Shown: piece after piece, positions 1,586-63,788 of the stretch
How positions within the stretch are numbered: the stretch's first letter is position 1
Layout of the letters: each line of letters starts with the position of its first letter
Assembly (NCBI GenBank): GCA_050084985.1
Contig: JBITNC010000001.1
Span: 121,086,001 to 121,150,000 of the forward strand
Direction of reading: 5' to 3'
Length of the DNA: 64,000 bases
Origin: Nageia nagi
Taxonomy: Eukaryota; Plantae; Pinophyta
Program-made: the position numbers and the translations under genes
The notes under the pieces: model-generated
The model's database searches: none
The model's input: the letters and a program-made list of their open reading frames with translations, nothing else
Told to the model about the DNA's origin: nothing

Positions 1586-1890
1586 ATGAAAGATGCTATT
1601 CACAACTACTACACCAGGTCAAGCATTAGAAAAGAAATGGCATCTGCAAGGAAGAGCGGAAAGTTGCAGCTTGATGAGATACCTTCTAGGGTCACCCAAG
1701 AGGAAGATCGCTGGCCATGGATGAACGAGGTGCCGAATGAGGGTGATTCTGATGAGGAGAATGAGGCGCCAAAAGGGAGGACCACTTCGGTTAGGAGGAG
1801 AAGCCCTACTCCAGCTCGGAAATCCACGCCTGAGAGGCGATTCAATGAGCTCATTTCGGCCATCCACAACATGATGGAGCTATCACCTCT
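1586..1890 (+). pseudogene. N-terminal gag-like fragment of element A, truncated
   Basis: ORF MKDAIHNYYTRS... starts just after the PBS. No capsid, PR or RT sequence follows; the sequence switches to an unrelated accessory ORF at about 1900. End coordinate approximate. Confidence 0.55.
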
Positions 1891-2070
1891 ATGCAAAGGC
1901 AAATGAACACCATCCAACTCTGCCAAAGATGCACTAAAAAGGTATGGGGATTTCTTTCTCCAAAATCAACATTTTTCTTATATTAAGATATATAGATCTT
2001 CTGTGGAGCCGTACTAGTTGCCTAGGTATGTTAGCAATAGGCTAGTCTTGATGGAGATTATGAGGCAACT

Positions 2071-5420: not shown

Positions 5421-5527
5421 CTCTCCCCAACTGAAAACATTGCTACCCCTGGAGCAATAAAGAAGGAGACAGTTTCAATCAGAATCACTGGAACTGTCAT
5501 CAACAGTAACAACTGATGGAGCATGAA

Positions 5528-8671: not shown

Positions 8672-11600
8672 TTATTTTACCACATCCGAGGAAGAAGAGG
8701 CTTCCCCGGATACATCAGGATCTGCTATCTTTATCTGCTGTGTGAATTGCTCCTTCGTTGATGGTATCAAATATGGTCGGAGGCGATGTCCATTAACCAG
8801 GAGAATCCTCCGAGAATTGTCAATTGGCTGTAACTGGACTGAACCATTAGGGAATATTTGAAGAATCTTATATGGCCCCAACCATCGTGTCTGGAGCTTC
8901 CCTATGAAATCATTATATCGGGAATCAAATAATAGAGCCCATTCCCCTACTTGAAACTGATTCTGTTTCAGATTTTTGTCATGCCAAAGTTTCCGTTGAT
9001 GTTGGATGATTTCAGTATTATGCAATGCCTCCATTCTTATTTCATCCAGCTCATTTAACTGGAGCAGTCTATTTTTCTGAACTTCTGTTATGTCCATCCC
9101 AACTCCTAGGGCTGTTCTCAGTGTCTGGAGCTCAAATTCTATTGGCATTAGAGGCTTCTTACCAAAAACCAATTCATATGGAGTAAATCCAGTGGTGGAT
9201 TTCCACATGGTATTGTATGCCCAAACTGCTTCAGGAAGCCTGGATACCCAATCCTTTCTGTGCGAAGCTACTGTCTTGGTCAATATATTTTTCCAGCTCT
9301 CTGTTAGTAACTTCAACTTGTCCATTTGTTTGTGGGTGATAGGGCGAAGCCTTCCTATGTCGGATTTGATATTAGTTTACAAAATGTTGTATTGTCCTTG
9401 ACATGAACTGCAGACCCTGATCAGAAACCAAAAACCGAGGAGCTCCAAATCTCTGCATAATGTTATTATACATAAAATCTGCCACCAATTCTTCTTTGGC
9501 ATGTGCCAAAGCTACTACTTCCACCCACTTAGTGGCATAATTAGTACAGACTAGTATGTGTCTCTTACCTCGAGATGGAGGATTAATAGGTCCAACAAAG
9601 TCGATGCCCCATTGCTCAAATGGTTCAAGCATCCACTGTGGTTGTAATGGCATCTGAGTAGTAGCAGTTGGTCTACCCATTCGTTGACACTGGTCACATT
9701 GCTTCACATATTTCCTAATGTCTTTGTGCATGGAAGGCCAAAAATAACCAGCTCCTAGGACTTTATGAATGGTTCGTTTATCAGAATAGTGACCTCATGA
9801 CGGCTCATCATGACATGCACGGATAACGTCAAATACCTCATCTGTCCGTAGACACCTTCGGAGTGCATAATCAGGTCCATATTTAAACAATAATCCATCC
9901 ACCCATTTGTATGATGCACTCTGCTTTATCAGTTGTTTCCTCTGATTTGGAGACAGATATGGAGGAATTCTTCCAGTGGCAAGATAATTAGCAATGTCTG
10001 CAAACCATGGTGATTGTGTAGAGATTGCAAATAGTTGTTCATCTGGAAAAGTATCCTCCACAAGCTCATCTTCTCGAATGATGTTCAGTCTAGACAAGAA
10101 ATCTGCTACTACATTTGTCTTGCCAGGTTTATCAATTATAGTCACATTAAACTCCTGTAATAATAGCAACCATCTCACGATTCTTCCACTTACCACAGGT
10201 TTGTTCATGAGATATTTAATGGCAGCATGGTCAGTATGAACAAACACTTGGTACCCTGTGATATAGTGTCTAAATTTATTGATGGCATACACTACTGCTA
10301 GGAATTCTTTTTCTGTAGTAGTATAATTTCTTTCAGCTCCTACCAAGTTTTTGCTTATGTAATAAATAGCATATGGGGACTTACTTGGTTCTTCTTGTCC
10401 TAGGACTGCTCCAATAGCATAATTTGAGGCATCCGTATGAATGTGGAATGGAAGTTCCCAATTTGGACCTCTCAACACAGGAGTTGTGGTGAGTTTTTCT
10501 TTGATGGTCTGAAAAGCTTCTTCACAGTCAGCCGTCCATTCAAATTCATTGTCCTTATGCAGCAGGGCAAATAATGGGGCTGCTATTTTACTGAAATTTT
10601 CTATAAATCTTCTGTAGTATCCGGCATGTCCCAAGAAGCTCCGGACATTGTTTGAGTCTCAGGTTGAGGAAGTTGCTTGATAACTTCTATCTTCTTGGGG
10701 TCCACCTGAATCCCTTGGGCTGAAATATGATGGCCCAAGACTATTCCCTCCTGTACAAGCATGAAACATTTTTCATGGCTTAAGGATAGATTATGCAGTT
10801 TGCATCTCACCAATACTTTTTCTAAGTTCCTTAAGGCATTTTCAAAAGTGTTGCCATACACTGTGAAGTCATCCATGTACACTTCAACGCAATCATTAGT
10901 CAGATCTGAGAAGATTGCTAGCACAGCTCTTTGGAAGGTTGCTGGTGCATTGCACAAGCCAAAAGGAAGAACCTTGTAAGCATATGTACCCCATGCACAG
11001 GTAAATGTAGTCTTGCCCTGATCTTCTTCTGCAATTTGTATTTGGTTATAGCCACTGAATCCATCTAAGAAAGAGAAATACTGTTTACCAGACAGAGTGT
11101 CTAACACCTGATCAATGAAAGGCAATGGAAAGTGGTCCTTGAATGTGGCTTTATTGAGAGCTCTGTAGTCAACACATACCCTCCATTTGCCATTTTTCTT
11201 AGGCACAATCACCAAAGGTGAGACCCATTGACTATCTGAGATAGGATAGATGAATTCAGCCTTCAACAGCTTCTCAATTTCAGTCTTAACAACTTCTTTA
11301 AGTGCAGGATTTATTCGTCTAGGAGGCTGCTGGACAGGCTGGTTTCATTCGTATAAATATGATGGGTACATATTTGAGGATGAATTCCTTTCATGTCTGA
11401 GTAATCCAAGCAAAAGCTTCGGTGTGAGTGGTCAAGACATCAAAAAGCTTCTTCTCTTGTTCATCCGTCAGCCAATTGCTGATATTAAGAGTCTTTCCTG
11501 GTAATACTTCAATAGTCTTAATCCCAGGCTTGGTCAGATTACTCTGTTCTGGAAGCTGAACTAGGGAATTCAAAGGACAAGAGTGTGGGAATAAGGAATG

Positions 11601-14600
11601 GAATACCCTTGTTCTTTCCCTGAAAGTATCCCTTTTGGAACAATGTGAGTAAGAGGACATTTGAACATTGCCAACAAGGCTGCTTGTTCTTCTGAAGGAA
11701 CATTAAAAATAATGCTTTGTAATGGTTCGACCACTGAATCTCCCCTTTCCTCATCACTGCCCTCTGATTCTCCTTCCTGTTGCTCCGGACAGTGATACTG
11801 TATCTGTTCCAGACTAGGATCTTCTTCTATCTCCTCGACATGGTCCTTGATGGTGATGGTTGCTAATGTTGCAAAAGTGTCATGTGCATCCATGTCAGGC
11901 TCGTCGATCCATACCTGATTGTGATAATCCAATGTTGGTTGGGCAGGTGGGTACAAAGAAAGTGTCTTTGTGTTTAGGCCATTAGAAATAGTCATGTCCC
12001 CGGACCTACAGTTGATGTATGCAGCTGCTGTGGCTAACCAAGGTCTACCCAGTATGACTGGATATCCAGAAGGCTGTGCTCTTGTCTTTAACAGCAGGAA
12101 ATCCACTGGATAGCTCCAAGAATCTACTGTACATCTTCTACAATTCCTTCCGGCTTAGCTACTGTTCGGTCTGCCATTTGTAACTAGTTGAAGTGGGCTG
12201 TATATTTGACAAAAATAGTTTTTGAGACATGTCCAGAGTCATGATATTTATTGCTGCTCCCAAATCAACTAAAACATTAGGCACTTTAGTGGTCCCTATG
12301 TTAATGGTAATGACAGGATTTCCCGGATCACCATACTTAGGAATTACCAAATTTCCGGCCAAAAGATCAGCTACTTTACCATCTACTTTAATAGTCTTTG
12401 GATAGACTTTCTTTCTTCTTCCTCTCCTGTGCATGCATAATTCTTTAACCATCTTGTTTAGCTCAGGAACCTGTTTGATTGCTTGTAATACAGGTATAGT
12501 GATATTCAATTTCCTCATCTCTTGCAGTAGTTCTGATTCTATTTCTTGAGGTTTTTCCATCAGTCTCTCTGGATATGGACTAACTGCTGTCTGGAGCTCC
12601 TTATTATGTGCAGGTGCAATTGTTTCTGTTGGTGGCTCCAGACTATCCTTGTTTGCTCTCCTGGAGATTCATCTGAGCTGTCCACCTCTACTTCTGTGAT
12701 AACAGGAGGTGTAGGATCTGGCAATTTCTTACCAGATCGTAGCTCGATTTCATTGCATTGGATAGCATTTATTGATGCTGTCTCTCCTTGATCAATCTGA
12801 TAGGCAGGCGCTGGAGCTTGCCTGTTATTATTGGGGTTGGGAACAGGTTGGGCAGGAAGAGCTGGTTGCTTCGGAGGTTGTTGCTGCTGATTCATTGGTT
12901 GTTGTTGATTAATAGGTGTGGTGGCAGCAAACCTTGCCTTCGCTGTCCTTAATTATTCCAGTTCTGCCGATTCTGTCCTCCATATTGCTGCCATTGTGGA
13001 TTTCCATTGTGGATTTCCATTGTGGAGAATCCCATTCATATACTTGCCAATCTGGGTTTGCCATCCATGGGGAATTGTGTGGCATGTTCCACCAATTCGG
13101 ATTTGTTGGCCTAGAAAAATAAGGATTTGGGTTTCCTTGAAAATTATTATTTCCCCTAGGCCCCATTGCTCCCATATAGTTCATGTTCATGTTTGGGGCT
13201 GCTACAGACATTTGTGCTATCGTTAGATAGTCACAATCATCTGTTGGATGGTCATTATTGCACAGGCTGCATATATGGGTGGTGTTCAAAGGACATTCAT
13301 GTAAAGCATGTTTCTTCCGGTATCTAGGACAGTATCTTGATGAGAATTCATCAATGGCTTCCTTCTTCGAATTTGTGCTTTGGAAAGAATCCTGCATTTC
13401 TTTCAACTTGTTTGCTGTCCCCTTCAGTTGACTTAGTTCAAACAGAACATCAGTCCTGAAGTTAGCAAATTCTTCTTTGATTTCACTTGCCAATCCAGTC
13501 TCCATTCGACCATCATTCTGAAACCTGTCGCTTCTCTTCTGTGATCTGGTCCTTGAATAGTTTCTACAGAGTTCCACAATTTCATCAAGAGTTAACTTAT
13601 TGACATTACCTTTTCCCATCAGATTGAGGACTTCCAATGTGGAATCCAGAAGCCCTCTTAAAAAGATGGTCTTGGAGAATTCTGGATCCATGGTTGTACC
13701 CACTTCTTTGAACAAATAGGAATCTGTCAAGGTAATCTTCAAGGCTTTCTGAGGTTGCCTGTGTGAGCCGAAACAGTTCATCCTTCCTATCTTTAACTCG
13801 ACAATACTCTTGATATTTTTCTAAGAAGGCTCTTTCCATTTCTTGCCAAGTAGAGATAGAATCTGGAGGTAGTCCCATGAACCACCTCATTGCATTGTCC
13901 TTCAGAGTGGATGGAAAGAGTTTTAATTTCTGTTCATCCATTTCATAGTCATAAGTTTTGCACAATATTTTGAACTCAACAAGAACTGATCTGGATCTTC
14001 ACTAGAAAGACCTTTGAAAATAGGTAAGACTGATGGTGAAATATTTTTCATAGGAGCCTGAGTTCCAGCAGCAAGCCGAATGGGATAAGTGAAAGTTTGG
14101 GTTGAAGTTTGAGGAGTACCCCCTACTCCAGAACCACCACTTCCTCCAGACATATTTACCAGCGGATTGATATATATACTCCTAATATGATCCAACTCTG
14201 GTATACTACCTTTGCGGTAGTGAATATGGAAGGGTTTCTTGGCTGCCTCCTTCTCAGCTTTAGAATCACTTTCACTAGAAAGAGGTTGACTAATGGATAA
14301 TGGTGAAGGTTTATCAAAGGAATGGATGAATGGATGAGATGTTGGGGTCGGAGTGACTGTATCCGGAGCAGACTCAACTAAATTTGGCTGAAGAGTTAAT
14401 TCTGCAAACCGTATAGGTGCTAAAGGAGATGTATCTGTAAATCTCTATATTGTTTAGGTGGATCTGAAAATCTCAGAAATGGTGGTAAGGATGGACTAAT
14501 GAAAGGTGTTTCTTCTGCAATTTCTGGATGTTCACGTTTTGGACTATGATCTGACTCCTCTTCTGCACTTGTTGGCTCAATTTCTTCCACAGGTCTAGGC

Positions 14601-14689
14601 TTTGGCCTAGTTTCTTCTGGTTGCTCCACCTGATGTTCTTCAACAACTATACTACTTCCTTGTTTTTCCACAACCTTTCCTGAATCCAA
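8672..14689 (-). pseudogene. Element C gag-pol (Gag, protease, RT, RNaseH, integrase), broken by 1-bp frameshifts
   Basis: Gag KLKLFPSTLKDNAMRWF and Cys/His knuckles; PR VLVDLGAAINIM; RT VEVYMDDF; RH IHTDASNYAIG; INT WGIDFVGP/VSDQG; WLGPY motif. Confidence 0.95.
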
Positions 14690-15008
14690 CTTTTTATTTT
14701 TGGGGGGTTTTTGTGGTATTGATTTTTGTGTTTTCTGTGGTTTTCCTACAACTACTTTCTTACTACCTTCTCCTTTACTACTAACAAATCTCCTTTATTA
14801 TCTCTTAATCTATTCATACATTCTCAAGCAAATAATCAAACCAAACTATCACAACTTCAACAACAGTTCTCTGCAGATTCTTAATATAGGTTATTGGGGC
14901 CACTCATTCTGTTAAGAATTGAGGAACCAGGATGGCACCCGATTGCAAATTGGCTCTGTCAAGTCCCCTATCCTTAAGAACTACAGAGATAGCTCAATCA
15001 ACACCGTT

Positions 15009-15026
15009 TCCCCGGCAACGGCGCCA
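15009..15026 (-). promoter_or_regulatory. Primer-binding site, tRNA-Asp type
   Basis: Minus strand reads TGGCGCCGTTGCCGGGGA, the PBS typical of Athila-lineage elements. Confidence 0.92.
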
Positions 15027-15029
15027 AAA

Positions 15030-16887
15030 TGATGAGTTAAATAATGACACTCCAAATTCCCCCAGGGCTGTCACTACCCTCCCCTTAGTGATCCTCACAC
15101 TGTTATTGTGAAGGGACCAGTTAACTCAAAGAGCTGGTACACCAACACTCAGGAAAGCTTTTAGTTGCCTCTCACTAAGTTTGGAATATCAACATTTATC
15201 CCCTTCATTACTTTTATCAAATCCGGGAGGTGTTCAAGGCTGTATGCTATTGAGCTCTGCTCTCTAAGCTGTATCTACTTCAAGCAAAGTGGCAGAAAGC
15301 AAATGTGCAGAATGAACGTTGCAGAATTGAAAGTACAGGAATCTGAAATACTAAAAGAGAGACAAACTGGAAAATACTGAACTTAAAGCAAACTCACATT
15401 TAAACTTGGAAAGTACAGAAAGATAAAAGAGTCTTCTACCATTTGGAGTGGGCCCTTGCTCCTCTTGGTGGAAGACTTAGAGAACTCAGAACTGGAAACT
15501 CTTTAACAGATCACTTTATTGTTGCATGCAATTCGTCTTACACAGAATGTGCTTGACAAATCTAATACAGAGCTTCAACACAATAATCTATTCACACAAT
15601 ACTTTCTTAATTTTCTAACCCCTCCTACCGTCAACAATTGAGGTATAAATATCCTCCATTGTTTAACAATAGGTAGGTCAAGAATAACCATAATCTGAAC
15701 AGTATTCTGTTATGGAAAACAGAATCATTTATTCTACTAACTGACTAATACTAAAATTATCATACTAGTAGTATCCATGCCCTGTCTAAAGAGAGCTGCA
15801 ATCCCTTAGAAAAAGGGATAGCTCATCTCAACAGGTCAGCACTATCTATTTACATTCATAGGTAGTTTTTTTATGCTTAAATTGGAGTCAAACGTACACC
15901 AAAAACAAGAATCATATCTGACTATATCTGATGTGTTGAAACCATGCTTCTACAGACTATATCTGGAGCAGTTCATATCTCCTAAATATATGGATCATAC
16001 AAGGTTAGAATAGAGCTAACAATATAGTCAAGGATGACAGTCAACTCCTCAGATCTAGGCCTGGAGTGGAAGCTCCGGACGAGTTTGAAGCAGGAGCTCC
16101 GGACGAGTTTGAAGCAGGAGCTCCAGACGAGTCCAACATAGAGGCTCCAGACAAGCTTGAAATAGAAGCTCCGGACAAGCTTGAAATAGAAGCTCCGGAC
16201 AAGCTTGAAATAGAAGCTCGGACAAGCTTGAAATAGAAGCTCCAGACAAGCTTGAAATAGAAGCTCCAGACGAGTCTGGAACAGGCGCTCCGGACGAGTC
16301 TGGAACAGGCGCTCCGGACGAGTCTGGAACAGGCGCTTCGACGAGTCTGGAACAGGCGCTTCGGATAGGTCTGAAATGGAAGCTCCGGACGAGTCTGGAG
16401 CAGGCGCTCCGGATAAGTTGGGAGATATAGACCTTTGACACGTCTGAGTTGAAGACCTTGGGTGAGTTGAGAAGGGCTCGAGACAAGTCTGGAGGAGAGC
16501 TCCAAACAAGTCTAGCTCTTCTTTATTCAGATGAGGCGCCAACTATGTCTGGAGCGGAGCTCCGGACGATGCAGACCTGTTTAAAAATCTGTCTGGAGCG
16601 GAGCTCCGGACAATGTAGAATTTGTTCAAAGGCATCTTCACAAGACTTGCAACCCATCCAAATTACCGACCATCATTCTATGTTGCAAAAAGAAGCATTT
16701 TGGTTCAAAACAAACACAAAAGTATAATCAGTATGCACAAAATACTAATATAAGGAAGGTATGCATTTAACCATATATTAAGCAACTAGATAGTTCAACC
16801 ATTACAAATAATCCGTCCCATAATGTCCAAATATACAAAATGAACCATTGAACCGTGCCAAAACCAGGTAATTTCTGAGACTTATCA
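15030..16887 (-). repeat. 5' LTR of element C (1858 bp)
   Basis: TGATG..TATCA ends; direct repeat of 3632-5420. Confidence 0.96.
16072..16430. repeat. 24-bp tandem repeat in the C 5' LTR (15 units)
   Basis: Same unit types, with one extra 'tttgaagcagga' unit and two extra 'cttgaaatagaa' units. Confidence 0.9.
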
Positions 16888-16892
16888 GTCCC

Positions 16893-21542: not shown

Positions 21543-24500
21543 CAACTGACATTCTTGCATGAGAACGTTTGGCCAAAGAAGTCGGCTACCACAAACTTAC
21601 TAGTAATAGTGGGTGAATACCAGTGTTGATTTTGGGTTGATGTGGACACAATGAAAGAAGAACTTGAGAAGTACGATTTCAACAAGATGAGTACAACTGA
21701 GCACTATGACTGGATCACAAAATACACAACTTCGTGTGAAGGAACGAAAGAAAGCATACAACCATAGGTCATTCGGAGGTGAAGTGTTGTTTAGGAATGT
21801 GAGTAGTGAGTCCTAGATGAAGAAGATTCGTGTGCAATTACAAGAAGAGGCAAAGACAAAGCAGAAAGTGGTAGAAGAAGGGATAGGTAAATCCTTGTCA
21901 TTTGTCAAGGGAAGTGGCAAGATGAGTCCACCTCCCAAGTCACACTCTATCCTTTGGATGAAGAAGAATAGGTAGGTCAGTATGCTTCTATGCATGGAAG
22001 TCATCGACGGATAGGGCAGTTGAACAGGTTAGAGAGGTGTTAGACGAGCATGCCTTGAAGGAGTTGGAGGAATTAGCAATGGATAAAAGGGTGAGATGTG
22101 TAAGGAACATTATTGAAGACCCATCACCCATAGTTCGACCTATTCGAAGGACAAATCAACCTCCGACTTCAGCAGTTCCACCTTCAAACTCCCAATCTTT
22201 AGGATCATAATATGAAATGAAAAACAAAGAACAGGTGAATGATCAAACCAACGATGTGCAAGTAGAGAGTCAAGCTCGCGCTATGGAGGTAGACCAGAAG
22301 AAGATTCACTTGAAATACTAGGCGAAAGACCTGAGCCCCCACCATCAAATCCTTCCTCATCTAAGAGTAGAGGGAAGAGTTCGACTTCACAAAGTGGCAG
22401 CAAAGAGAGCACAATGAAGGAAGACTCCATGCCTACAATAGTCAATTGAGATAAATGACATAGAGAATCCAAGTGAAGAGGAAAGGTAGTCAAAGAGAAG
22501 TAGGTTGTATGTAGTTTCGTTCAAAAACCCATCGTGGAAACACATTAGCCTACAAGTAGCAATGAATGGGGTATAGATGTGAGTGAGTGCCTTAATGTCT
22601 TTAGGTTCGATGTGGGAGATGAATTCGAAGACATTGAAGAGGACCACCAAGTTGTGGATGGTTCCACTCGGTCGGGTAGGAGCCAGACTTATGTTCAAAT
22701 GAAAGACAATTTAGCGCACATCAAGACAATGTTCATCGGCAAGGCCAACCCTCAAAATGAAGGAGACCTCAATCAAATCACTCAAGTAATCAAGATGGGG
22801 CCAATTGGAATCATTGGATGAAAGCATTCCATCATCTCCAACATGGATGCTATGACAAAAGATGGATTACAAAAGGAGAAAGAGATTAAGAGTTTGAAGA
22901 AAAAATTGGCCGCCCAAAAGAAGTTGACAATGGAGATTGAAATGGCAAGAATGACTCTCGAAGACATCCGGAAGCAAATTCTGTTGAATGAGGGTTTATT
23001 GGCAGTTAAAGAGAAGTTGATTCAAGAAGTCATTGAGGTGGTGACAGTTTGTAAAACCTCTTCAAAGGATTTCCATAGAAGAAGACTAGATGAAGTTGTT
23101 CCAGACAAATAGGGCTTAGCTACTTGGGCAATTGGAAGAGCAGAGGTTGGTTATTGAGAACTCGCAAGAAGCAACAATAAGTACACCGGTAGATGCCAAT
23201 TTTTGTAGAGAATATTGGTTCAATTTGGGGTGATTACGTCAGTTAGGTCCTTTATGTCAAGAGTTAGGCAAAGAGTTGGTAAATATTAGGGACAAGGTGC
23301 ACTCATGAATGGAAAGAATGGAGTATGTGGTAAAGTTCCTCGAGGAAGGTTTAATCAGGGAAGTGTAGTAACTACCGAGGTGAAGCAATTGATGAGGGGC
23401 TTGGTCTGTACGGATGATGTGAATGCCTACCGGACTGGGAGTCATTTTGAGCATATGATGAAGTTGCATGCTTGGAAGCTTGAGATGGAGCGGACCAGAC
23501 GCAAGGTGGATGATTTCATTGCAAAGAATACAACAACACACAGTGAGATTGTCTATGGATTGGAGCTTACCGCATCATACTTGGACGATCATTTTGAAGA
23601 CAACTTTGCCACCCTAGTGCAGCCTTCTGTTGACTTGTATTTCTTCCCCCCCTGCGAGAAAGGACACCGTCGATGAGTGGAGTAGCGTTACTTACCCTTG
23701 CTTGAAAGGACTTTAACCCCAAGGTTTCTTTAACTTATTATTGACTTTAGATTTTCGGTAGGACACATTTTAAGCAATAGTGGTTGATAGTCGACAGGAT
23801 AGCTTTAGGGGGAGGTATGTGCTCAGGGATGGTTACTCACAATTATGTGGACCTATTGGGCTTTATCTCGATCAATGTTCTTGTGGAAATATGCAAAAGC
23901 AAAGGGAATTCAAAGAAAGTTACGAAAGATTTGGTAGTTGATAATAAAATAAGTGACAGGTACTCACCAACCATGACATACATTGTACTCCCCATACAAT
24001 TGTCCGATAGACTACTCTTGGTCTTCCATGGACATTAATAAAACTTTCTTTCTTTCTCTCACCGTTGTGCAGGGTTTGAAGCTTTCATCTCTCAGATTTA
24101 TTAGGAACTTCTACTTAGGTTATCAAGCAGGGGAGGAAACAACTGAGTCCGGATCACTCCCAAGCAAGAGCACGGGGTAGTAGTCAGGGTGGACAAACAG
24201 GTGAAGTGAAACATTCAATTATCTATGTCCCAGTAGGAGATTCCAATCAAATGTCATAAGAGTAAAGTGATTCAAAACACCACAACTTTATGCAAACCAT
24301 AGAAATGGTCATTCGTACATCTAAGAAAGATATTCAACCATCTTTTCCTAAAGTGCCGGACTTTCAAAGAAAATGCTTGTAAATGTATAAACAACACAAC
24401 AACATCATCATTTCATTTACATATCCATGATCCCATGAAATGAGAGATTGCACTTGCATTTAAAAAGAAAGTTCCCCAAAATGATAGATCATACATACAT

Positions 24501-24973
24501 TTAGAAACCTCAACTCTAAAGTGCTTTCCGAAAGATTTGCATTTAACTCAAAAGGAACTCCTTCTAGGAAGCATGTAACTTTTCATACATTGAAGGGTTC
24601 TTTCTCTGATCTATCTATCTATATCCCTTTTTTTTTCTATTCTCCTCCTACTTCAAAAATGACCCAGCTAGGGTACTTATAGCATATATCTAACAACTTC
24701 ATTATATGAAGCGTCGCCCTAATATTAATTGTAGAGTTTCCCTAAAACAACAAAACAACCCTAATACTAATTTGAAAAACGTAAACAATCAACAAAACAA
24801 AATTGCGGCTACACAATACCACTTGAATGTCACATCAGTGTCACTTCACATCACATCAAGTCTTCTTGCAGCCGCGGGAGCAACATCCAAGACTTCCTCA
24901 AGAATCCTGTGACCTGTCATCAAAGAAGGCCCTAGCCTTGGTTAGTCCTACAACAAGTACTCCTGGCAAGTCG

Positions 24974-27900
24974 TTATCCTTCATGTTGTGAAAATTCAAG
25001 ATGTATTGAGAAGTGCATTCCATCTGGAATTTCCAAACGGCCAAATGTTGCTGATTTTCGATGTGTCCCAGCCCTCAATAGGTTTACGTCCTTGGTAAAG
25101 ATAAGCTCCCGAATGGTATTCTGGACTTCCTGAATCACGAGCTCAACTCTCCTATCGCTACCATATTTATTCATAAACTTGATCGACTGCACAAACTGGC
25201 TCATTTGGAAGGTCAGGGTGAACAATAGGTCGATCTTGTTCTTGATCAAATTATCACAATCGCTTGTTGCAAACCTTAGCCAATGTAGGTGGTAGGCAAA
25301 TTCTTGGTAGAATTGTATCCTGCCTGCTTGTATTGCATACATTCTTTTCAGACTCTGGATGGTCTGCTCATGGTTTTGAAAATCCTGCAGTAACTGATGA
25401 GTCCCAGAAATTACTTGCTTTTGGCACGGTTCAATGGTTCATTTTGTATATTTGGACATTATGGGACAGATTATTTGTAATGGTTGAACTATCTAGTTGC
25501 TTAATATATGGTTAAATGCATACCTTCCTTATATTAGTATTTTGTGCATACTGATTATACTTTTGTGTTTGTTTTGGACCAAAATGCTTCTTTTTGCTAC
25601 ATAGAATGATGGTCGGTAATTTGGATGGGTTGCAAGTCTTGTGAAGATGCCTTTGAACAAATTCTACATTGTCCGGAGCTCTGCTCCAGACAGATTTTAC
25701 ACAGGTCTGCATCGTCCGGAGCTCCGCTCCAGACATAGTTGGCACCTCATCTGAATAAAGAAGAGCTAGACTTGTTTGGAGCTCTCCTCCAGACTTGTCT
25801 GGAGCCCTTCTCAACTCACCCAAGGTCTTCAACTCAGACGTGTCAAAGGTCTCTATCTCCCAGACTTGTCCGGAGCGCCTGCTCCAGACTCGTCCGGAGC
25901 TTCCATTTCAGACCTATCCGGAGCGCCTGTTCCAGACTCGTCCGGAGCGCCTATTCTAGACTCGTCCGGAGCGCCTGTTCCAGACTCGTCCGGAGCTTCT
26001 ATGTCAAGCTTGTCCGGAGCTTCTATTTCAAGCTTGTCTGGAGCCTCTATGTTGGACTCGTCCGGAGCTCCTGCTTCAAATTCGTCCAGAGCTTCCACTC
26101 CAGGCCTAGATCTGAGGAGTTGACTGTCATCCTTTACTATATTGTTAGCTCTATTCTAACCTTGTATGATCCAGATATTTAGGAGATATGAACTGCTCCA
26201 GATATAGTCTGTAGAAGCATGGTTTCAACACATCAGATATAGTCAGATATGATTCTCGTTTTTGGAGTATGTTTGACTCCAATTTAAGCATAAAGAACTA
26301 CCTATGAATGTAAATAGGATAGTGCTGACCTGTTGAGATGAGCTATCCCTTTTTCTAAGGGATTGCAGCTCTCTTTAGACAGGGCATGGATACTACTAGT
26401 ATGATAATTTTAGTATTAGCCAGTTAGTAGAATAAATGATCTGTTTTCCATAACAGAATACTGTTCAGATTATGGTTATTCTTGACCTACCTATTGTTAA
26501 ACAATGGAGGATATTTATACCTCAATTGTTGACGGTAGGAGGGGTTAGAAGATTCAGAAAGTATTGTGTGAATAGATTATTGTGTTGAAGCTCTGTATTA
26601 GATTTGTCAAGCACATTCTGTGTAAGACGAATTGCATGCAACAATAAAGTGATCTGTTAAAGAGTTTCCAGTTTTGAGTTCTCTAAGTCTTCCACCAAGA
26701 GGAGCAAGGGCCCACTCCAAATGGTAGAAGACTCTTTTATCTTTCTGTACTTTCCAAGTTTAAATGTGAGTTTGCTTTAAGTTCAGCATTTTCCAGTTTG
26801 TCTCTCTTTTAGTATTTCAGATTCCTGTACTTTCAATTCTGCAACGTTCAGTTCTGCACATTTGCTTTCTGCCACTTTGCTTGAAGTAGATACAGCTTAG
26901 AGAGCAGAGCTCAATAGCATACAGCCTTGAACACCTCCGGATTTGATAAAAGTAATGAAGGGGATAAATGTTGATATTCCAAACTTAGTGAGAGGCAACT
27001 AAAAGCTTTCCTGAGTGTTGGTGTACCAGCTCTTTGAGTTAACTGGTCCTTCACAATAACAGGTGTGAGGATCACTAAGGGGAGGGTAGTGACAGCCCTG
27101 GGGGAATTTGGAGTGTCATTATTTAACTCATCAGTAACTTGGAAATGACTGCAGTTGTGTTTTCTTCTGCCTTCTAGTCATCTGTGAGGGAAATCAATCC
27201 AAGTGAAAATTCGTTGACCACTCTCATTATGTCATTGACCAAGGTTTCTTTGGTTGTTGTGATACCAATGTTTAGGGAAGCTTGTAGCTTAATGTCTTCA
27301 AAGGACATTTTGGAAATTTCTATTTCCTTCACCAACTGATTCTTATCAGCCACCTCCTTCAGCTCTTTTATGGTATTCTCCCTCTCCATGCCTTGGTTGA
27401 CCATTTCATCCACATTATAGTTAATAGCGTGTTTATGCCTGGCCCACCCATTTTTTATAACATTGAATTCTTCAGTGTGGATCTGCACATCTTGAAGGTC
27501 TTGCAGATATTTCTTCTTCGAGTAGCATCTATTGATGGTCATCGTATCCTTCTTCATAGACACAAAAGTGTCGAGTTCTTCAATGGGGATTCTTCGAAGG
27601 CACTCTCCCTCTTCTAGCTAGATTCTTCGTCATCACTACGATAGCTCATCTACAGATCCTTCATGACTACATCAATATGAAAATCATATTTCTTCTACGG
27701 GATAGAACTTGATGCAATATTGGCCAAGGTGGTATTTGTATTAGTGGGAGTGGATTCTTTGGGGATCTCCTCAATTCTCAGCTGCTGGTTTTTGAGCTCA
27801 TCTGTCTTATCTTTGATCCTTAATGGTTTGTGGCTGCCATGTTCTAGCTGCTTCCTTTTCTTTCTTTGTTCTTCACTATCGCCTTTGTCTTCTTGATCTC

Positions 27901-30102
27901 CTCCGCTACTTCCTGCTGTCGAGGTTTTGTTCAGCTTTGAGGTTTTACTGAGGGTTGTCCTGGGTGCTTCTTTCTTAGGTGATGACCTCCTCTTCCTCCT
28001 TGGAGTGGTGGATTCTGTGGATTCGAAAGAGGCGACCTGTTTCTCAGATACTGATCTGGTTGGTAAAGTTTCATTGGCTATCTTAGCTTCGAACTCTCCA
28101 TCAATGTCCACAATCTAGGGTTCTCCCGTGTCAAGCTGCGAGTCTTTGTCATCCTCATGTCCCCTTACAATTTCTCCTTCTTCTGAACTAGACTCGGATG
28201 GACTGGAAGATGAGATGATGTCTCGGAATTTGACGATGAACTGGAATGATGAGGCAAATTAGGCTCTTCAGATTGATTTATGGTGGGAGCGATTTGCTCT
28301 TCTGTCTATGCCTCTACCTTAATAGGTCAGGGAACTCAATCTCTGCATGATCTTTTGTTGGTGTCAAGAGATTGGGGATAGCCAAGGGGTTCTCGGCCCT
28401 GACTGGCATTATAGGTGCTATAGGGAAATCCTTTGGGGTGGCATCCTCGAGCTGTTGCAATGGAAAATCAGGGTATCCTGTTTCTGCCATGATATGGACA
28501 TCTTTGGTAATCTCCTTCACAACGAAATGAATTTCTGGTCCAAAACCGCTTAAGGTGGCATGTTCGCCTATCCATCCTTGGCGTCTCCTCACACTTGTCA
28601 AGGAGGTAGATTTCTCACCTGGAGTTGCTTGGGGTTTACTTAAATTCTGGATTCTTCGATCAATCCGACCTTCCGCTGCCAACACTTGATGTACCTCCTG
28701 AATTTGCTTATCTTCTCTTTTATTCCTGTATCTCTCCTTGTCTCCTAGAGACTTGTGCTCATAAATTATTGTTTTTCTGAAAGCTCTTTTGTAGAAGACC
28801 TGAATTCGCCCTTCAAAATCATAATGAGAAGCTGCTTGCACCTCGTAGAAGTGATAATAAGACAACTCCGTCCTCATTTCTTTGGCCTCTTACCAAGTTG
28901 AACATGTATATTCCTCGATGGAAATGGGGAGGTTCCTTGCAGCATTCTTCTTTTTCCATATATTTTCATGCATAAACAACAGTTGTCTATAGAATTCCAT
29001 GAGGATCAACCGATTATTGGCATAATGGGGCAAGAGATATGGCCTGACTTTAGAACCGTAGACCCGAATATATGTATGTGAGGGTTCTTCTAGGAAATAA
29101 TCCTCTTGCCCCTGGATGGCTTCTACAGCAAAATATGATTTCATTTTCACCATCTGCCTTCCCTTTATCTCCTTGTATATCTGATATTCCCACCCGTCGT
29201 TCCTCATGGCATAGTGATCCCATCTGAATTCTAGCCACCATTTGGGATAGGCTTTTCATGTAGGCTTTGTAGGGTCGTTCAAAATGTCTGTATCTGCATG
29301 CGTTGACTTTCTATTTTTGCCATGGAGAAGGAGATATACAAGATATGAATTCATGTGGAACCTCTTTGAAGAGCCGATCGGGCCAATTGCTGAAGGAGGG
29401 AGTCGTTGATTACTTTGCTCCATCGGATCCTTTGCCTATTCCGATTACAGCAATGAAACCGATGAATTCCTTTTGAACTTGAGGTCGTCCTCCTTACCTG
29501 TGACCCGAGACAACATACTGATAATCATTGAGACAATGGGATAGAATTGTTGTCTCTTTGCATTAATCAATTTGTTTCCAGTGAATTCTTTGCTTTCATT
29601 CTCGAGCCAATCTCGGATGAGATCCCTAGCTTGTTGAGATTTCTCATCCTTTTCGGTGTAGATGACCCCTTCGCCATTTTAGTTGAAAGCCTCCTCAATG
29701 CCCTTTGGGGAGAAATCGAGGATTTTATTGCCATCTGTATCATAGAGGGTGTGAGTTTTGTAATTAGCATGCCTACCAACTTCGTAACAAAGCTCATGGA
29801 AAGGTGTGGCAAACAGGATGAGGGTGGCCGTAGCCAATCCAGAGGTACAAATGACCTCATTGAGCATTTGATTCTTTTCTAATCTTTTGATGTATTGCAA
29901 AGTCTGAATTGGGATCGATATGTGACCAATAAGTATCCTGAATATTGGAGAGACTATTTTTGAACTTGGCCTCCTTCAGGGGATCTTCGAGATTCTCTTT
30001 GAGGAATTCAATCTGAGTGGTTTCAGTTAACCTCACTAGCTGAAGTTCTCGAGTCTTTCTCAATTTGGAGTTTATTTTTGACATATTGATCTTGCAAATC
30101 AA
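24974..30102 (-). pseudogene. Accessory ORF of element E (~1100 codons net), unknown function, interrupted by the solo LTR
   Basis: Chain of same-strand ORF pieces 29857-30102, 29679-29900, 28890-29207, 28314-28877, 27695-28111, 27174-27563 and 24974-25342. Homologous to copy A'; no gag/pol motifs. Confidence 0.8.
25395..27133 (+). mobile_element. Solo LTR of the element C family (10 x 24-bp units)
   Basis: Reverse complement of the C LTRs; TGATG..CATCA ends; perfect TSD GTAAC (25390-25394 / 27134-27138); no PBS or PPT. Confidence 0.96.
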
Positions 30103-30359
30103 ATTGAGTTAGTGTGGGATGGACTGATTGATAGACGTAGTGGGAATGGTATGGGTAGGACGAGTGTGGTGTATGATGCCCGACAATCCTGTATGCCCTT
30201 TGATATGAGGAAGATGATGCAAAAATGCAGGTGAGATTTGAGACTTAATGCTTGTGACAAAAGGTGGTTGGTCTCCTTGCAACATCCAAAGTATGAGCCT
30301 TAAACAATTAATGCAAGTGCACATCCTTCAGCTTATGGGACCAATATGAATGCATGAAG

Positions 30360-31840
30360 GGCTTGGTCGCACCTTTCAAGGATGTTAGCTTTCCAACTTA
30401 GATGAATGATGCTACCAGCATGGAGAATGACTTTATGGGATGTGGCCAAAATGAAGGGATGACGCACAACACAAATAATAGACGACTAACTAAATAAAAC
30501 CAAATTTCAACGGGCATCTAAGTGTGGACCCCTTCCTTAAAATGAGACTTCTTTGATGCATGCATGGGAAATTTCAAAACAAAGATGCAAATGTGATTCA
30601 TATGGATCATGCGACCATACAATTTTGACTAAAAATTGCAATTTTAATGGGCGCATTGTTTTTAAAAGATGGATCCTTATCTTCTTGGGATATTGTGACC
30701 ACGCACATCTAGGATGGTCATGCAAAATGAAACCAACTCAAAATTTAATGACTAAAACAGGTGGCCAATAAATATGGACCGTTTGACTTTATGCAAGAAA
30801 AGGTGGTCTCATACTTCAAAAAGGGTGCAAATGTGACTTAGCAAAATCATGCGACCAGCCTTGGAAAGGTAAATGATTTGCAAAATTTGACCAAGTCTCC
30901 TACTCTTATAGCCATCTTGATTGCCAAGTGGCAACACTTCGGCGGCCGAAGGAAGGATTTTCAACAGGTGTCCAATCCCATGCAAAATGCTGTGGTCGCA
31001 TCTCTCCAAAAAGATGCAAATGTATCTTCTTCAAACATGCGATCAGGGATAGGGGTGCCAAAGTCCAACACTTAGTAAAATGAAGCCAAAAGGGTGGTCT
31101 GCATGCTTCCCAAAAGATGCAAATGTAACTTTTTCAAACCATGCGACCAACTAGAAAATGTCCCAAAATGGACTACTTCAACCAAATTCAACTCAAAAGT
31201 GCCCAATAGGGGTGTTCGCACCTTTCTCAAAAGATAGAAGTGTAACTCTTCCTGACCATGCGAACAACCTTTAAGGGTGTTGGGCTATTACTTAGCCAAA
31301 ATTTGAAGACCAAAACACAAGGAATGGGGTGGTCGCACCCTTTTAAAAAGATGCAATTGTAACTTTTGCCAACCATGTGACCACCTTGGAGCAACACGTT
31401 GGATTAGCTAAAGTAAAAATGAAATTACCTTGCTCTCCTTTTATACTAGCTTGTCATGTCCTGTGTCCACTGCTAAACGGCCAGAATGGAGGTCAAATGA
31501 GGTCAAGGATACACATTAAATGCTAAGATGGGGTGGTCAATATCTCCAAAAAGATGAAAAGGCAACTTTTCTAAAAAATGCGACCAACTTGGAGGATGAA
31601 ATTTGAGTGCACTTAGCCAATTTATAGTCTCAAAATTGTATTGAGGGGTGGTCGCACCTTTTGTAAAAGATGCAAAGGTGACTTTTTCAAACTATGCGAC
31701 CAGCTTGGGAGGGATTTACTTAGTAGAATTCTAGCGTTTTGCCTTAGTCTCTTGGGCCTTTTATAGACCATTTTAGGCGCCAATTGTCATCAAAGGGGCG
31801 GCCATTTTAGAAAGAAAATGAGAATTATGATCGCAGCCTT
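30360..31840. repeat. Degenerate ~110-120-bp repeat array with an internal inverted repeat TGGTCGCA-N~38-TGCGACCA
   Basis: Units at about 30803, 30993, 31094, 31214, 31330, 31534 and 31649, plus partial ones; shared core AAAAGATGCAAATGT. Confidence 0.8.
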
Positions 31841-32188
31841 AAAAATAGACAAGAATGTATTCTCCCTTAGCCACGCAATCACCACTTTTGATGTGAAAAC
31901 TTGGTGATTTTGGACATTCTTTGAAACATGACTGGACCTTCATCAGATGCCCGCATTTCCTTCGTTTTTTACTTGTATGGATACTTTGAGAGTATTCTTT
32001 CATCTGCTGTAAGCAAGTATCCCAGGTGAATTTTAAAGTTGCACTTCGGTTCATCTAACTAGCTTGTCTTCACTACACTCTGAAAAAGTGGTTCTCCAAA
32101 GCTTTACTCTTGTTGAGCTCCATTGTCATCCTTTGACTAAGCGTCCCCAAATTTTTCGAAAAATTAGGGGGTTGTTGCTTCATCAACA

Positions 32189-33475
32189 CCACCTTAGTTT
32201 TTATTATTTTATTTTATCATGGTTATTTTATTTTGTACTTCAAATTATTATATATTTTTGTCAAAGCCTTGTGACGGATGAGGATTTGCTCCGACAAGTG
32301 CTGGAATAAATCTTGTATCGCCAAGTGGCGAATTATTATTGGACCTCTAATAATTAGGGAAAACTTCATTTAGGGTTAGGGTTTTCTTTTGAAAAACTAT
32401 TTATATCCCTTGGAGGCTCATTTGTTAGGGGATCCAACATTTTGCGATTGGAGAATTTTTCTAATATTTTCAAGAAAACAAGTTTTCATAATTGTGAATG
32501 TGGTATATGATTCTAAGTGTTGTGTAAATTCTCATTGCTTGTGACTATGAACATGATATGAATGACTCTTGCTAATCTTAAGTGAATGAATGAATGTTAA
32601 TGCTATCTTGTGTTGCTTTGAAATTTTTCTAATATTTTCAAGCAAACAAGTTTTCGTAATTGTGAATGTGGTATGATTCTAATTGTTGGGTAAATTCTCA
32701 TTGCTTGTGACTATGAACATGATATGAATGATTCTTGCTAATCTTAAGTGAATGAATTAATGTTATTGCTATCTTGTGTTGCTTTGATTACTTGGAGCAT
32801 TTCGTAAATCTTAGTTATGGTGGATAAAAGAGTGCTTGAATATCTTTAGAAGTGATTTGAGTAAAACTTGAGTGCAATAGTTTGTAGTTTGCATACGAGA
32901 CTTGTGTATTTTGGAATAGCTCCGCTATGTCACTTAGCTTAGGAACTTCACTCCCATGTTGACAAACCACTCACATTTCATCATAACCATCTTTGCTTCA
33001 GCTTCTCGCTCCCTCTCCTAGACCACTCTTGTTGTTGGTTAGTAGAGTGGATAAGGAGTGCGTGGAGCCTATACAAGCCTGGGAGAGTTGATGTCCAAAC
33101 TCTACACCAGTCGGTGAGATATCATACACATGAGCTAAACTCATATATCCTTGACCACCTTTTTTTTTTATTTCTCATTTTTTTGGCAACTTTTGCAACC
33201 CCGTAACTAGTGGTATTCAAGAAACAACCCTTGCCAAGGTATTAGACAATCCAAGTTCTTGACAAAATAAATTCGATTTAATATGGCGACAGCTTCAAAC
33301 ATCTCAGCCATTCTTTGAGCCCTGTTCCTGAGTACCCAAAAGAGAGAAGCACCTTGGAGGTAATCAGTCCTCATAGTGGAGGAGAGTAATGCCTCCTCAC
33401 ATGGGGTGTTGTTTCTTTGCTAGCCTTGCCATTCATTTGCCTATTCGCAAGGTAGGAAAGAAAAACGTCCCAACA
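32189..33475 (+). repeat. 3' part of a large LTR (continuation of copy A')
   Basis: TATA-like CTATTTATAT at ~32397. Ends GGAAAG....TCCCAACA like the solo LTR ending at 63788, then switches to host intron sequence. Confidence 0.6.
32453..32787. repeat. Tandem duplication, ~168 bp x2
   Basis: 'aatttttctaatattttcaag...tgttgctttga' occurs twice head to tail. Confidence 0.88.
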
Positions 33476-33884
33476 GGATCAAGAGTGGTTCAAATACACA
33501 CGAGCTTTGTACAAGTTGGCCTTTGAGCAAAGTGTCTAAAAGGGATCTTTCTAATAATTTAACTGGGTATTAAATAGAAAAGTGCTGTTTGATAACTGAA
33601 AAGGTTAAATATCAAAGATGGAAACTTATGCCATGAATCCATGGATGGATATCAAAATAAGAATTGTGACTGTTTATTATCAGCTCTTCCAGTTAATATT
33701 ACAGCATTCTGCTTACAGAAATACATTCTTCAGAAAATATATTGTGATCTTGTTCTGGTTCGACAGTGGCATGATGTTTAATATTTTTCTTTAGGGTGGA
33801 TTGTGAAGGCATGCTGTTTAATTAGCAATGGAACTCATTATGTTGCAACATTGTAATCCCGTGGAAGTATTTGGTTGGTTGCAG

Positions 33885-33972
33885 GTACCTTCTGGAGAAA
33901 AGCTTGTCAGTTGACAATCTTTTTGTATTTATTTTAATTTTTAAGTACTTTCAGGTGCCTCCTATGTATCAG
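33885..33972 (+). CDS. TERC: TerC-family thylakoid membrane protein, internal exon (phase 2 start)
   Basis: cag|G TAC CTT CTG... translates (G)YLLEKSLSVDNLFVFILIFKYFQVPPMYQ|gt. It contains the TerC signature E-x-S-L-S-V-D-N-L-F-V-F and has canonical AG/GT splice sites. This is the plant thylakoid TerC protein, not telomerase RNA. Confidence 0.95.
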
Positions 33973-34233: not shown

Positions 34234-34314
34234 AATCGGGTTCTTTCCTATGGGATTGCTGGTGCAATAGTATTTCGTGCTTCAATGATTATACTTGGTG
34301 CTGCTACTCTGCAG
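34234..34314 (+). CDS. TERC: TerC-family protein, internal exon
   Basis: cag|AAT CGG... translates NRVLSYGIAGAIVFRASMIILGAATLQ|gt. In frame with the previous exon; matches the TerC 'Q-RVL-GI-GA---R' motif. Confidence 0.95.
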
Positions 34315-59912: not shown

Positions 59913-62900
59913 TGTTGTGTCTGCACAACACACCTCGAAATACAAGATTTTGGGGACCCTATTTTTACAAAGGCTATGAGGTACATTGCCTTGAGATTTG
60001 CAGTTGGCAACGAATAGTTCATTCTGAAGAGTGCAAACATAATATCAGGGAGCAATTCATGGAGATCATGTGATGAAGACCTTGAAGAGTATCAGAGCAT
60101 CCAGTCACCAATTTTGCATCCGAGGAGCCAGGATCTAGAGAGTTCACCAGTAAATCGGATATTTAGGTCTCAAATGGGATAGATGGAGATGGAGTCATTT
60201 TTCAGAGTTTGCCAAAGTTGGAATCAAAAAACACAGGTCAAAAGAGGACTCCATTTCAGACAAGTTTAGGCTTGGAATTTTCGAAATCCACCTAAAGATG
60301 CAAACATTATTCAAAGGAGGGGCTTTTGAAGGTTATTTCTCACAAACCACAAAATTACCATGCAAAATGTATCAAAAAGAGGAAAATCCATGAATCTTGA
60401 TGAAAAAATTTGAATTTTTTTTAGGCATGGGTGGATGCAAAATGGCATTTGGACCAACTTTGGTGTTCTAAAGTTTTTGAAAACATCAAGTTTTGGGCCT
60501 CAAAAAGTTAGGCGGCACTTTTGAGGGTGATTTGTGGAGAGAGAAAACTATGAAATCGCCTAAAATAACCACCCAAGAAAAAAGGGTGCAATTTTGAGCC
60601 AAAACAAAAATTTGATGACATGGTTGCATGGAAAATGGCATTTGGAGCAACTTTTGTATTTGAACTTTTGCAAAAAAATCAAGTTTTGGGTCTCAAAACC
60701 TTAGGAGGCACTTTTGGGAATAATTTCATTAAAAAACTCATGATTTCATAAAAAGACTCATGATTTCACAAAAAAAATTTAAATTTTGGGCAAAAATGAA
60801 AATTTTGGCAATCATGTGTAGAATGGTGAGGAGCATGCATCCCCCTTGAAATTTTTGAAAAAAATGAAAAAAAGAAAATGAAGATTTTGTGGCTAGGCGG
60901 CACTTTTGGAGAGGATTTATTTTGAAAAGGGAAAAAGGAAAGTTTTTTTGTCTCATTCAATGAGAGGTTGACAAGTGGCAAAATCCAAATTTTTGGCAAA
61001 AATGAAAATTTTGAGGATCATGTGTAGAATAGTGAAGAGCATCCATCCCCTTGGAATTTTTGAAAAAAAGTGAAATTTGAGTAAAAAATGACCATTTGAA
61101 CATTTTGGAGGAGGGGTTTTGAAAAAGCTTGAACCACTTCCACCTAGCCAATGTGAACATAGGTTTTTCGGAAAAAATCTCAAACTCAAAATAAAAAACA
61201 TGGGTGTTTGAGGAATACTAAACTAAGCATCTTTAACCTTGGAGGAATTGCCAAAAAAGCTAACATCCACACTTGCCATTGAGCTTATTGCCCAAAAACT
61301 CCAAATAACTAACAAAAAGGCTCAAAAATCCCAAATCTTGCTCAAAAGCTCCAAAATCCAAATCAAGCTCAAACACCTCCAAGATCTCCGCCCAATCTAT
61401 TCATGGCCGTATGAGATCCTTCTGGGCATTTTTAAAATTTTTATAAATCCCCCCCCCCCCCCCTCCTCCTTTCTCAGATTTTAGACCAAAAAATCCATTT
61501 ATCAGAAAATCCTCAAAAGCTTGCCAAGATCGCTAAATCAATGGTGGAATCCACATTTCAGCGGTGCTCAAAGATTTTGAAGGAGATCCAAAACAGGCTC
61601 AAAATCAACAAGATCCTTTGTAAAAGGATCAATTTTCATGTAAATAGATCTAAAGTGGTTAAAAGGATGAATGTTTTCTCCTACCACTTCAAATGTAATT
61701 TCATTTTAATTTGCATTTCAATTAGCCTAGATTAAAGTTAGGGCAACACCAAAAGTGAGCTCCAAAAGTCTATAAATAGACCATAGGGGTTCTCATTTTA
61801 GGGAGAATGTTCAAGTGAAGGACAAGGCCAAATTTCGTGAAAATCAAATTTTTTGTAATTGAGAAGCAAATTGATGTACATGTGCATAACTCTTTTGCAA
61901 CGTAATACAAATGGCTAAAACTTGATTCTAAGTGTGTTATCATCAATTGGAGTTGTGGATTGACCTTTTGAGAGCAAATTATCATAATTCAAATATTTTC
62001 GTGCCATATCCTTGAAAGCTCACGAGTTTTAGGAGAATTTCTTGCAAACTTTTCCAAAGTGTTTGAATTGTCCCAAATTGTTGCTAATCCATTGCTTTCA
62101 TGTATAAATACTTCGTATTCTGAATTGCCTTTCTTTTATGATATCAAACTAGACTACTTGTTCAAAACATGTTCGTCCTTGTGATCCACTCTAAGTTTCT
62201 TTGATTGTTTCGACAATCAGCTTTGCTTTACACTTCTCTTTGAAACGATTGGACTATAGTCATTTGTTTTCAAAGTTGGATGAATCGAACAAGACCTCTT
62301 AATTGATCCAAAAGAAAGAAAGTTTAGACAATGCTAGTATAGTGATAATCATTTTGAAATCCGATCAGTATCTACCTCATTCTCACCCTTTTCTTTTCTT
62401 TATTTTTACTTATTTTAAAATCCATAGCAACTGTGATGATCCAAAAATTAAATTCCCCTTCAAACTAACAATGCAGGATCATCAAACCTTGATGTCAGGT
62501 TTAGGGCATCAACATGCAACCATACAAACCCTCAATGCCAACATTAGGGTTAGAGTAACCAATAAGCATCACAACAAGATAATTATACCAATGCCTAGCA
62601 CATACTTGCGAATGGCAATGAACAATACATCATATTGCCAACGTCTAGCTCATACATGCACAATGAAGCATAAACAATCTAACGCATGCACAAGTATGGA
62701 ATACACAATACACAAATGAGATCCAATGCCCTCTAGCGTATATGAATGATAAGAATGACAATAATACAATACAAACCCTAATGGGCAATCGTTGGCCTCC
62801 TAGGAGCCAACTAGGGCACAATGTTTGATCTCTCCAATACAGGATGAACTATGGAACGTGGGATAGATCTATCACCTCAGATCTTGAGTCCTCTCCATTG

Positions 62901-63788
62901 ATGGAGCCCTCCTTGAACTCTGGCTAACTGACTGAACAGTAGAAGTAAACCGTCGGAATGCCACCGGGTGGGCAAAGGTGCTTCACCAATGCCGTAGATA
63001 ATCAAGATCCCAACGCTTGACTACCCTCTAGACGTTCTGCCTAGGAATGGTTGCTTAGCACCGCTAAGACTTGTGTCTAAAGGACTGTAGTAGAAGTGTA
63101 ATAATAATCAAGTGTGTCCAGTAATGAAGCTCCAATGTCTATTTATACATTATTATGTTTGGATCTCACCTATGAGTCATCCCAGACCCATCTAATCCAA
63201 CATTGGGCATTTGGGGGCCCAATCATTTAAAGTGCCAATGTGGGAGTCATGATTACTCATAATGCCAACGTGGGGGTCGTGTGCATAAATATACCTTAGG
63301 ATTCCCACAACCCGAGATCTTCAATACAATCAAATGCCTAATCTACTACTTAGGAGGGAGACGTCCCACTTGAGGCTCACAGTGGGGTCCATTGACCCAT
63401 TAAGTCTTCTATCCTAAGTTACAATTATAAAGTGTAAATACATGAATGAAGTATATTACAAAGAGGAACCTTTCTAACCCCACAATGAATTACAACTATT
63501 CAAAAGGGATATCACAACAACTTTCGAACTATTGCAAGATAGACACTCAGTCCCTGAAAAAACATGTTAACAGTTACTACCTCTACTACACCACTCAGTT
63601 GATTCCCAAACAAGACCTACACAATTTAAAGCTTGTATTAATGACACAAGCTTTCTGATAGAAACCTTAGGGTATCAGTCCTTACAAGAGGAGTTCAGTA
63701 ACGAGTTCTAACCCATTGTTGGGTTGCTTTCCCGTCTTGATTGTCTCGTGGCGATCGTTGAGGAAGAGGAAAGATTTCCTTCCCAACA
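59913..63788 (+). mobile_element. Large solo LTR (H, ~2.8 kb net) inserted in the copia zinc knuckle
   Basis: TGTTG..CAACA ends; perfect TSD CATTG (59908-59912 / 63789-63793); TATA CTATAAATA at 61770; degenerate internal repeats at ~60400-61150. Removing it restores the copia frame ..SHL-HCTRC. Confidence 0.9.
62432..63516 (-). mobile_element. Solo LTR (I) related to the chromovirus A/B/D LTRs
   Basis: TGTGAT..ATCACA ends; TSD GCAAC/ACAAC (1 mismatch); shares blocks with the LTRs at 401-1551 and 2071-3440; no PBS or PPT. Confidence 0.85.

Follow-up and report, generated by a model that had tools for sequence, protein, structure and literature searches.

What is a gene of some 1,165 codons doing between the outer end and the promoter of what looks like a single long terminal repeat (LTR)? 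The question is raised by element E, a unit on the minus strand of a 64-kb stretch of Nageia nagi DNA (contig JBITNC010000001.1; hereafter the window), which a sequence-only reading had taken for a giant LTR with its own open reading frame (ORF) in U3. In the window, nested LTR retrotransposons of a plant adjoin a short TerC-like exon, and E itself has LTR-type ends and one ORF, with no second gene and no VANDAL/Mutator-type transposase as a neighbour. We find that the arrangement is real and evolutionarily conserved, and that a gene lying within a giant LTR is the best reading of it.

Limits and layout of element E

The features of E are listed from its 5′ end. H is an LTR-like relative elsewhere in the window, and loci numbered L001 to L007 come from a metagenome scan in which 101 pattern matches resolved into 7 loci.

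23628..32188, minus: element E, solo-LTR-like unit, TGTTGA...TCAACA; 8,561 bp gross, 6,817 bp net of a nested solo LTR
32141..32188, minus: conserved 5′ terminus motif, common to H, L002 inner, L005a and L005b
30364..31708, minus: array of palindromic units (TGGTCGCA ... AAAAG-n12-CTTTT ... TGCGACCA)
31417..31446, minus: upstream TATA-like box and TCATTT motif, candidate ORF promoter
30871..30911, minus: second upstream TATA-like box and TCATTT motif
27134..30084, minus: 5′ part of the ORF, ATG at 30084, with stops and frameshifts
25395..27133, minus: nested solo LTR, target-site duplication (TSD) GTAAC, of the family of an Athila-like element at 3632-16890
24845..25394, minus: 3′ part of the ORF, end approximate
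24657..24682, minus: LTR-type TATA and TCATTT motif, presumed main promoter
23628..24656, minus: R/U5-like tail of about 1 kb, including 23804-23815

The TGTTG terminus proposed at 32188 holds, the 5′ end of E reading TGTTGATG. The opposite limit, earlier placed at 23818, was wrong: the true end, TCAACA, lies at 23628, about 190 bp further on. A sensitive self-comparison matches the tail of E to that of H at 23655-23729, beyond the former limit, and the relative in L007 stops at the point homologous to 23628. The ends TGTTGA and TCAACA form a perfect 6-bp terminal inverted repeat. Because E extends to 23628, the G-rich stretch at 23804-23815, once floated as a polypurine tract (PPT), falls inside the tail, on the opposite strand, and is no PPT. 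As had been claimed, E contains no repeated LTR (no direct repeat between its 5′ and 3′ parts at an E-value of 1 or below), and the TATA-like box expected near 24680 is found at 24676-24682. The nested solo LTR shares 94-96% identity with those of the Athila-like element, and is missing from an independent copy of the region. Part of the tail (23956-24075) is shared with an LTR-like element at window 48999-49074 and with many unrelated contigs.

E alone displays the entire order of terminus, array, TATA, ORF, TATA and tail from end to end, which no single relative does; the order recurs in diverged families. E itself is a dead copy.

The ORF and its predicted protein

The ORF runs from the ATG at 30084 to about 24845, a net length of about 3.5 kb. 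Of the 3.4-kb net ORF first described, what stands is a long coding region without gag or pol; the open frame does not, since the longest frame (499 codons) holds five stops, and there are several frame changes besides. No gag or pol similarity was found in E with queries that did match pol in L003, the positive control. The ORF was under purifying selection in the past.

The protein is laid out as a folded N-terminal domain, an acidic/Ser linker and a coiled-coil-like region, and a crude heptad scan suggests a coiled coil in its C-terminal part. The top structural match to the predicted N-terminal domain is VANC21 (PDB 9lnk), at 9% identity; this one solved structure ranked first for two separately built models and spanned most of the domain, which is predicted, with a weak fold score, to be VANC21-like. 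Foldseek against the PDB and viral libraries gave nothing at E≤0.001, and a sequence-profile search of the PDB with the ORF protein nothing below E 0.01. Matches to PMD (PF10536), Transposase_28 and ATHILA ORF-1 were absent from E, from a second copy in the window (A′, below), from the homologous proteins and from a set of 101 proteins; the ORF protein has no DUF1985 match and no profile likeness to the extra ORF (eORF) piece of the window's Athila-like element (probability 0.1%). Scans of viral contigs returned nothing. A longer or fused version of the protein was not found either, a weak form of evidence.

The palindrome array and the candidate upstream promoters

The palindromic repeat array reported upstream of the ORF is there, as seven copies of a 64-nt unit at 30800-31708 with weaker units continuing to 30364. 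It is built like the arrays of L002 and L005 with a different outer motif, and the palindromic motif varies along with the protein family. It had also been predicted that the ORF would need its own promoter, and at motif level one is present: with a TATA plus TCATTT pattern derived from other copies, two sites were observed upstream of the E ORF against 0.013 per shuffle.

Relatives in the window and beyond

Two relatives lie in the window itself, A′ on either side of E and H some distance away.

1913..2070, plus: A′ ORF, first surviving piece, 5′-truncated
21548..23627, plus: A′ ORF, main piece; E breaks A′ at its last codons
32189..33475, plus: A′ stop, conserved hairpin motif (32270), TATA (32397) and tail ending TCCCAACA
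59913..63788, plus: H, ORF-less relative, TSD CATTG; terminus, array, TATA (61770) and tail
~62432-63515: solo LTR of another family nested in H

A′ had been credited with the same layout as E. This is so for its ORF, stop, TATA and tail ending TCCCAACA; on the terminus and array A′ is silent, because its 5′ end is cut near 1913, at the junction with the beginning of an unrelated element. The A′ tail also carries a 168-bp tandem duplication (95%; window 32454-32787). The hairpin motif, with its GGATGAGG loop, lies between ORF stop and TATA (window 32270-32310) and recurs at L002 896 (minus), at L005 1425, 14793 and 19280 (minus) and at L007 2941; E lacks it. Contig depth was very high at this motif in three of four runs, depths not being taken as copy numbers. 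H is bounded by its TSD as claimed (CATTG, 5/5 positions), and the likeness of E to H proved genuine both at the head (z 4.9, 0/300 shuffles) and at the tail (z 3.7, 1/300 shuffles). No ORF remnant was detected in H.

Further copies came from a contig comparison of four runs, representing at most 3 samples, and from the metagenome loci. Pieces 93-95% like E tile 27141-30750, and an independent 1,671-nt contig bridges both ORF halves without the nested LTR, as far as 24693 beside the TATA. In a related family, a 3,432-nt contig matches, in order, the end of the ORF, the TATA, the tail and the 3′ end. A 7,883-nt X1 contig extends about 7.4 kb upstream of its ORF match, and P0005 derives from a 17-kb contig. 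Among the loci, L007 parallels E from the ORF through the 3′ end at 69-77%; the L002 ORF leads into a TATA-tail 63% like that of H; and L001 has an H-like array, TATA and TCATTT, and a 750-nt leader followed by a 758-codon open frame. L005 contains four members. One of them, L005a, goes straight from terminus and array to the last ~20 ORF codons, with TATA and tail after them. In L005b the terminus, the array and the upstream TATA survive, and in L002 inner the terminus and a short array; the ORF remnant is weak or absent in both. ORF-bearing and ORF-less forms thus share both flanks, the pattern expected from deletion inside U3. The terminus motif has five matches across the window and loci, all five at the head of an array, and in six copies the TATA lies, at motif level, 0.92-1.08 kb ahead of the 3′ end.

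Members of the group often insert into one another, frequently in opposite orientation, as E did into A′ (also L002 1-1687; L005 770-3007 and 13750-16326; an X1 contig at window 24298). It is possible that they target their own LTRs.

Is the unit a long terminal repeat?

The proposal that the ORF lies inside the U3 of a giant LTR is sustained in part: the ORF does sit between an LTR-type 5′ terminus with its array and an LTR-type TATA and tail, and a paired element has not come to light. We consider the unit probably an LTR: every retrotransposition would place it at both ends, and recombination between LTRs would leave the complete gene cassette behind. Several observations pull the other way. 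The 5-mers bordering E agree at three of five positions, so that its TSD is only suggestive. Among 12 units, none is linked to a primer-binding site (PBS), PPT or gag-pol, and no full element was found in which two LTRs, each with the ORF, enclose PBS-gag-pol-PPT; in small and biased samples, a PBS follows 0/9 3′ ends and a PPT precedes 0/5 5′ ends. In L002 the stop is followed by a purine run, 4 nt and TGTTGG, and the copy ends in CCAACA.

The nine 3′ ends comprise two contig ends and seven from a 3′-end pattern, of whose 12 rows five (window 55173 and 34421, L005 14823, L007 5562 and 3060) were dropped as lying off the end of the tail-homologous stretch; the degenerate 3′ end of L005b was left out of the count. 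The probability of finding no PBS in nine is 0.03 at a solo:full ratio of 2.6, 0.11 at 5 and 0.26 at 9, so that a ratio of roughly at least 3, or an assembly bias against paired repeats, is needed. A TGG 2 nt downstream of the L007 end was considered as a PBS and rejected, since what flanks it looks like the gag-protease region of a different element; the motif there, without a Pfam match, is presumably of gag-protease type.

Could E instead be mobile in its own right, a cassette with TG..CA ends and 5-bp TSDs that travels as DNA with the help of an integrase or transposase acting in trans? The missing links to PBS, PPT and gag-pol would fit, as would, weakly, the lack of a longer fusion protein, and DNA transposons are known to carry VANC genes. 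We nonetheless hold this to be improbable: a TATA and TCATTT about 1 kb from the 3′ end, with nothing downstream to transcribe, is an LTR trait, and the inverted repeat is just 6 bp. Moreover, long LTRs yield many solo copies, 2.6:1 and up to 10.5:1 (PMC3485330; here and below, citations refer to the accessible text of each source), and short-read metagenome contigs would break at paired near-identical repeats, which would favour old solo copies. More improbable still is an ordinary internal position of the ORF, as an extra ORF 3′ of pol, with a true LTR of about 1.2 kb and E deleted or recombined. The L002 junction and the imperfect TSD of E speak for it, and Athila env-like ORFs, too, typically have a splice acceptor ahead of their ATG (PMC7264820). 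Against it, five of six ORF-bearing copies, E included, show no PPT and conserved terminus between stop and TATA; the TSD-bounded H holds an array and 1.8 kb upstream of its TATA within one LTR; the terminus motif occurs solely upstream of arrays; and the candidate PPT falls in the E tail. Nor does the ORF of E occupy either position of internal eORFs, from pol to PPT or from PBS to gag.

It is also conceivable, though unlikely, that the ORF lies in U3 and encodes another accessory factor (a transcription activator, an RNA or particle chaperone, an integration helper), the array being an ordinary enhancer or a recombination by-product. The first rank of VANC21 for both models, and the shift of the palindromic motif with the protein family, argue against this. 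On balance we lean towards E being the solo LTR of a giant Ty3/gypsy retrotransposon of OTA type, whose U3 holds an accessory gene for a VANC/PMD-like, array-binding anti-silencer.

Comparison with known systems

Extra ORFs of OTA elements are normally internal, as the sequence-only reading held and as PMC7264820, PMC11963269 and PMC4408406 agree. The OTA Ty3/gypsy elements (Athila, TatII, TatIII, Ogre, Retand) and the 'PMD-CC' Tat eORFs resemble E in their large accessory ORF, whose product is folded at the N-terminus and coiled-coil-like towards the C-terminus (PMC4408406, PMC6317226). Tandem arrays and very long LTRs are further traits in common with the E group, as are 5-bp TSDs with H. 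Unlike theirs, the E ORF lies between an LTR-type terminus and an LTR-type TATA, its protein lacks a PMD, Transposase_28 or ATHILA ORF-1 match, and the 6.8-kb unit exceeds the 'up to about 5 kb' given for plant LTRs (PMC6317226). Forward eORFs of TatII were 23% 5′ and 26% 3′ among 27 elements (PMC6317226 supplement), while Tat lineage II has no eORFs according to PMC4408406; by analogy, there is a hint that an LTR-borne ORF would fit these near-equal shares and reconcile the two papers.

VANC proteins bind tandem motifs that evolve alongside them (PMC5735166), and PMD resembles the DUF1985 of VANC (bioRxiv 10.1101/2024.09.27.615353). Like the gene of E, those for the anti-silencing proteins VANC21 and VANC6 of the Mutator-like VANDAL DNA transposons are accessory and have family-specific tandem motifs next to them, which change as the protein diverges (PMC5735166). 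The context of E, in contrast, is an LTR-type retroelement and not MuDR, and its units are palindromic and about 60 nt long, not a 9-nt motif. A precedent for position is sag of MMTV, which fits entirely into U3, ahead of the main promoter, and has a second U3 promoter of its own, P2 (PMC9412291). That gene differs in belonging to a mammalian retrovirus and in its function. Its protein is also much smaller than that of E, and unrelated to it. We found no literature report of an ORF inside a plant LTR or of giant gymnosperm LTRs, within a coverage that most subscription papers fall outside.

A proposed mechanism

How might such a unit work? Most probably the LTR brings its own regulator. The array-embedded promoter would transcribe the ORF through a spliced leader, the mRNA ending at the LTR's own R, and splicing of transcripts from the main promoter might express the ORF as well, as in MMTV sag. 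The protein, attached to the palindromes of its family, would counteract methylation, and the main promoter, which lies 165-400 bp beyond the stop, would remain usable. We offer the anti-silencing function as a tentative, model-based prediction, and equally tentatively suppose that the C-terminal coiled coil pairs the protein into dimers, and that these bind the palindromes of their own family and leave both promoters accessible. With U3 present at either end, an insertion would carry the gene twice and a solo LTR once, and the ORF-less short LTRs (H, L005a/b, L002 inner) could exploit the protein in trans.

The surrounding window

The TerC match (PF03741, E 0.001, under the cut-off) is a short exon at window 34234-34314 (plus), with a second likely TerC exon near 33880-33900; giant introns of a TerC-like host gene may house the retrotransposon nest.

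3632-16890, minus: Athila-like element, 1.8-kb LTRs, 95% identical

This element has a PBS that we take to be of Asp type and its own internal extra ORF at ~5528-7816, with a weak PF20167 match. In L005, a chromovirus-like element with 1.5-kb LTRs has an internal ORF without a Pfam match (6617-8230, minus), to which window 1637-1905, adjoining the cut 5′ end of A′, is related. Decayed DNA-transposon-like coding segments, presumably hAT-like, lie at window ~52500-56410, flanked by AATCGG repeats.

Significance

The function of the extra ORFs of plant retrotransposons is a long-open question. Here one unit brings together a candidate protein, a lead to its structure in VANC21 and, in the neighbouring family-specific palindrome array, a candidate target, and binding is therefore directly testable with an intact natural relative (L001/P0003). 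Recent gymnosperm annotation set limits of 3 kb for LTRs and 15 kb for their spacing (PMC13477047); a 6.8-kb LTR goes beyond those limits, so such elements could be abundant yet unclassified. More speculatively, a land-plant Gypsy lineage may have moved a VANC-like anti-silencing gene of sequence-specific action, its own promoter and a co-evolving palindromic target array into the LTR, with solo LTRs as working counter-defence cassettes, ORF-less LTRs riding along, and the lineage missed in gymnosperm giga-genomes by annotation that caps LTRs at 3 kb. A gene in U3 would double with each insertion and outlast the formation of solo LTRs, a point relevant to the retention of retrotransposons in gymnosperms: if this is true, the host's main route of removal would itself leave working counter-defence cassettes behind.
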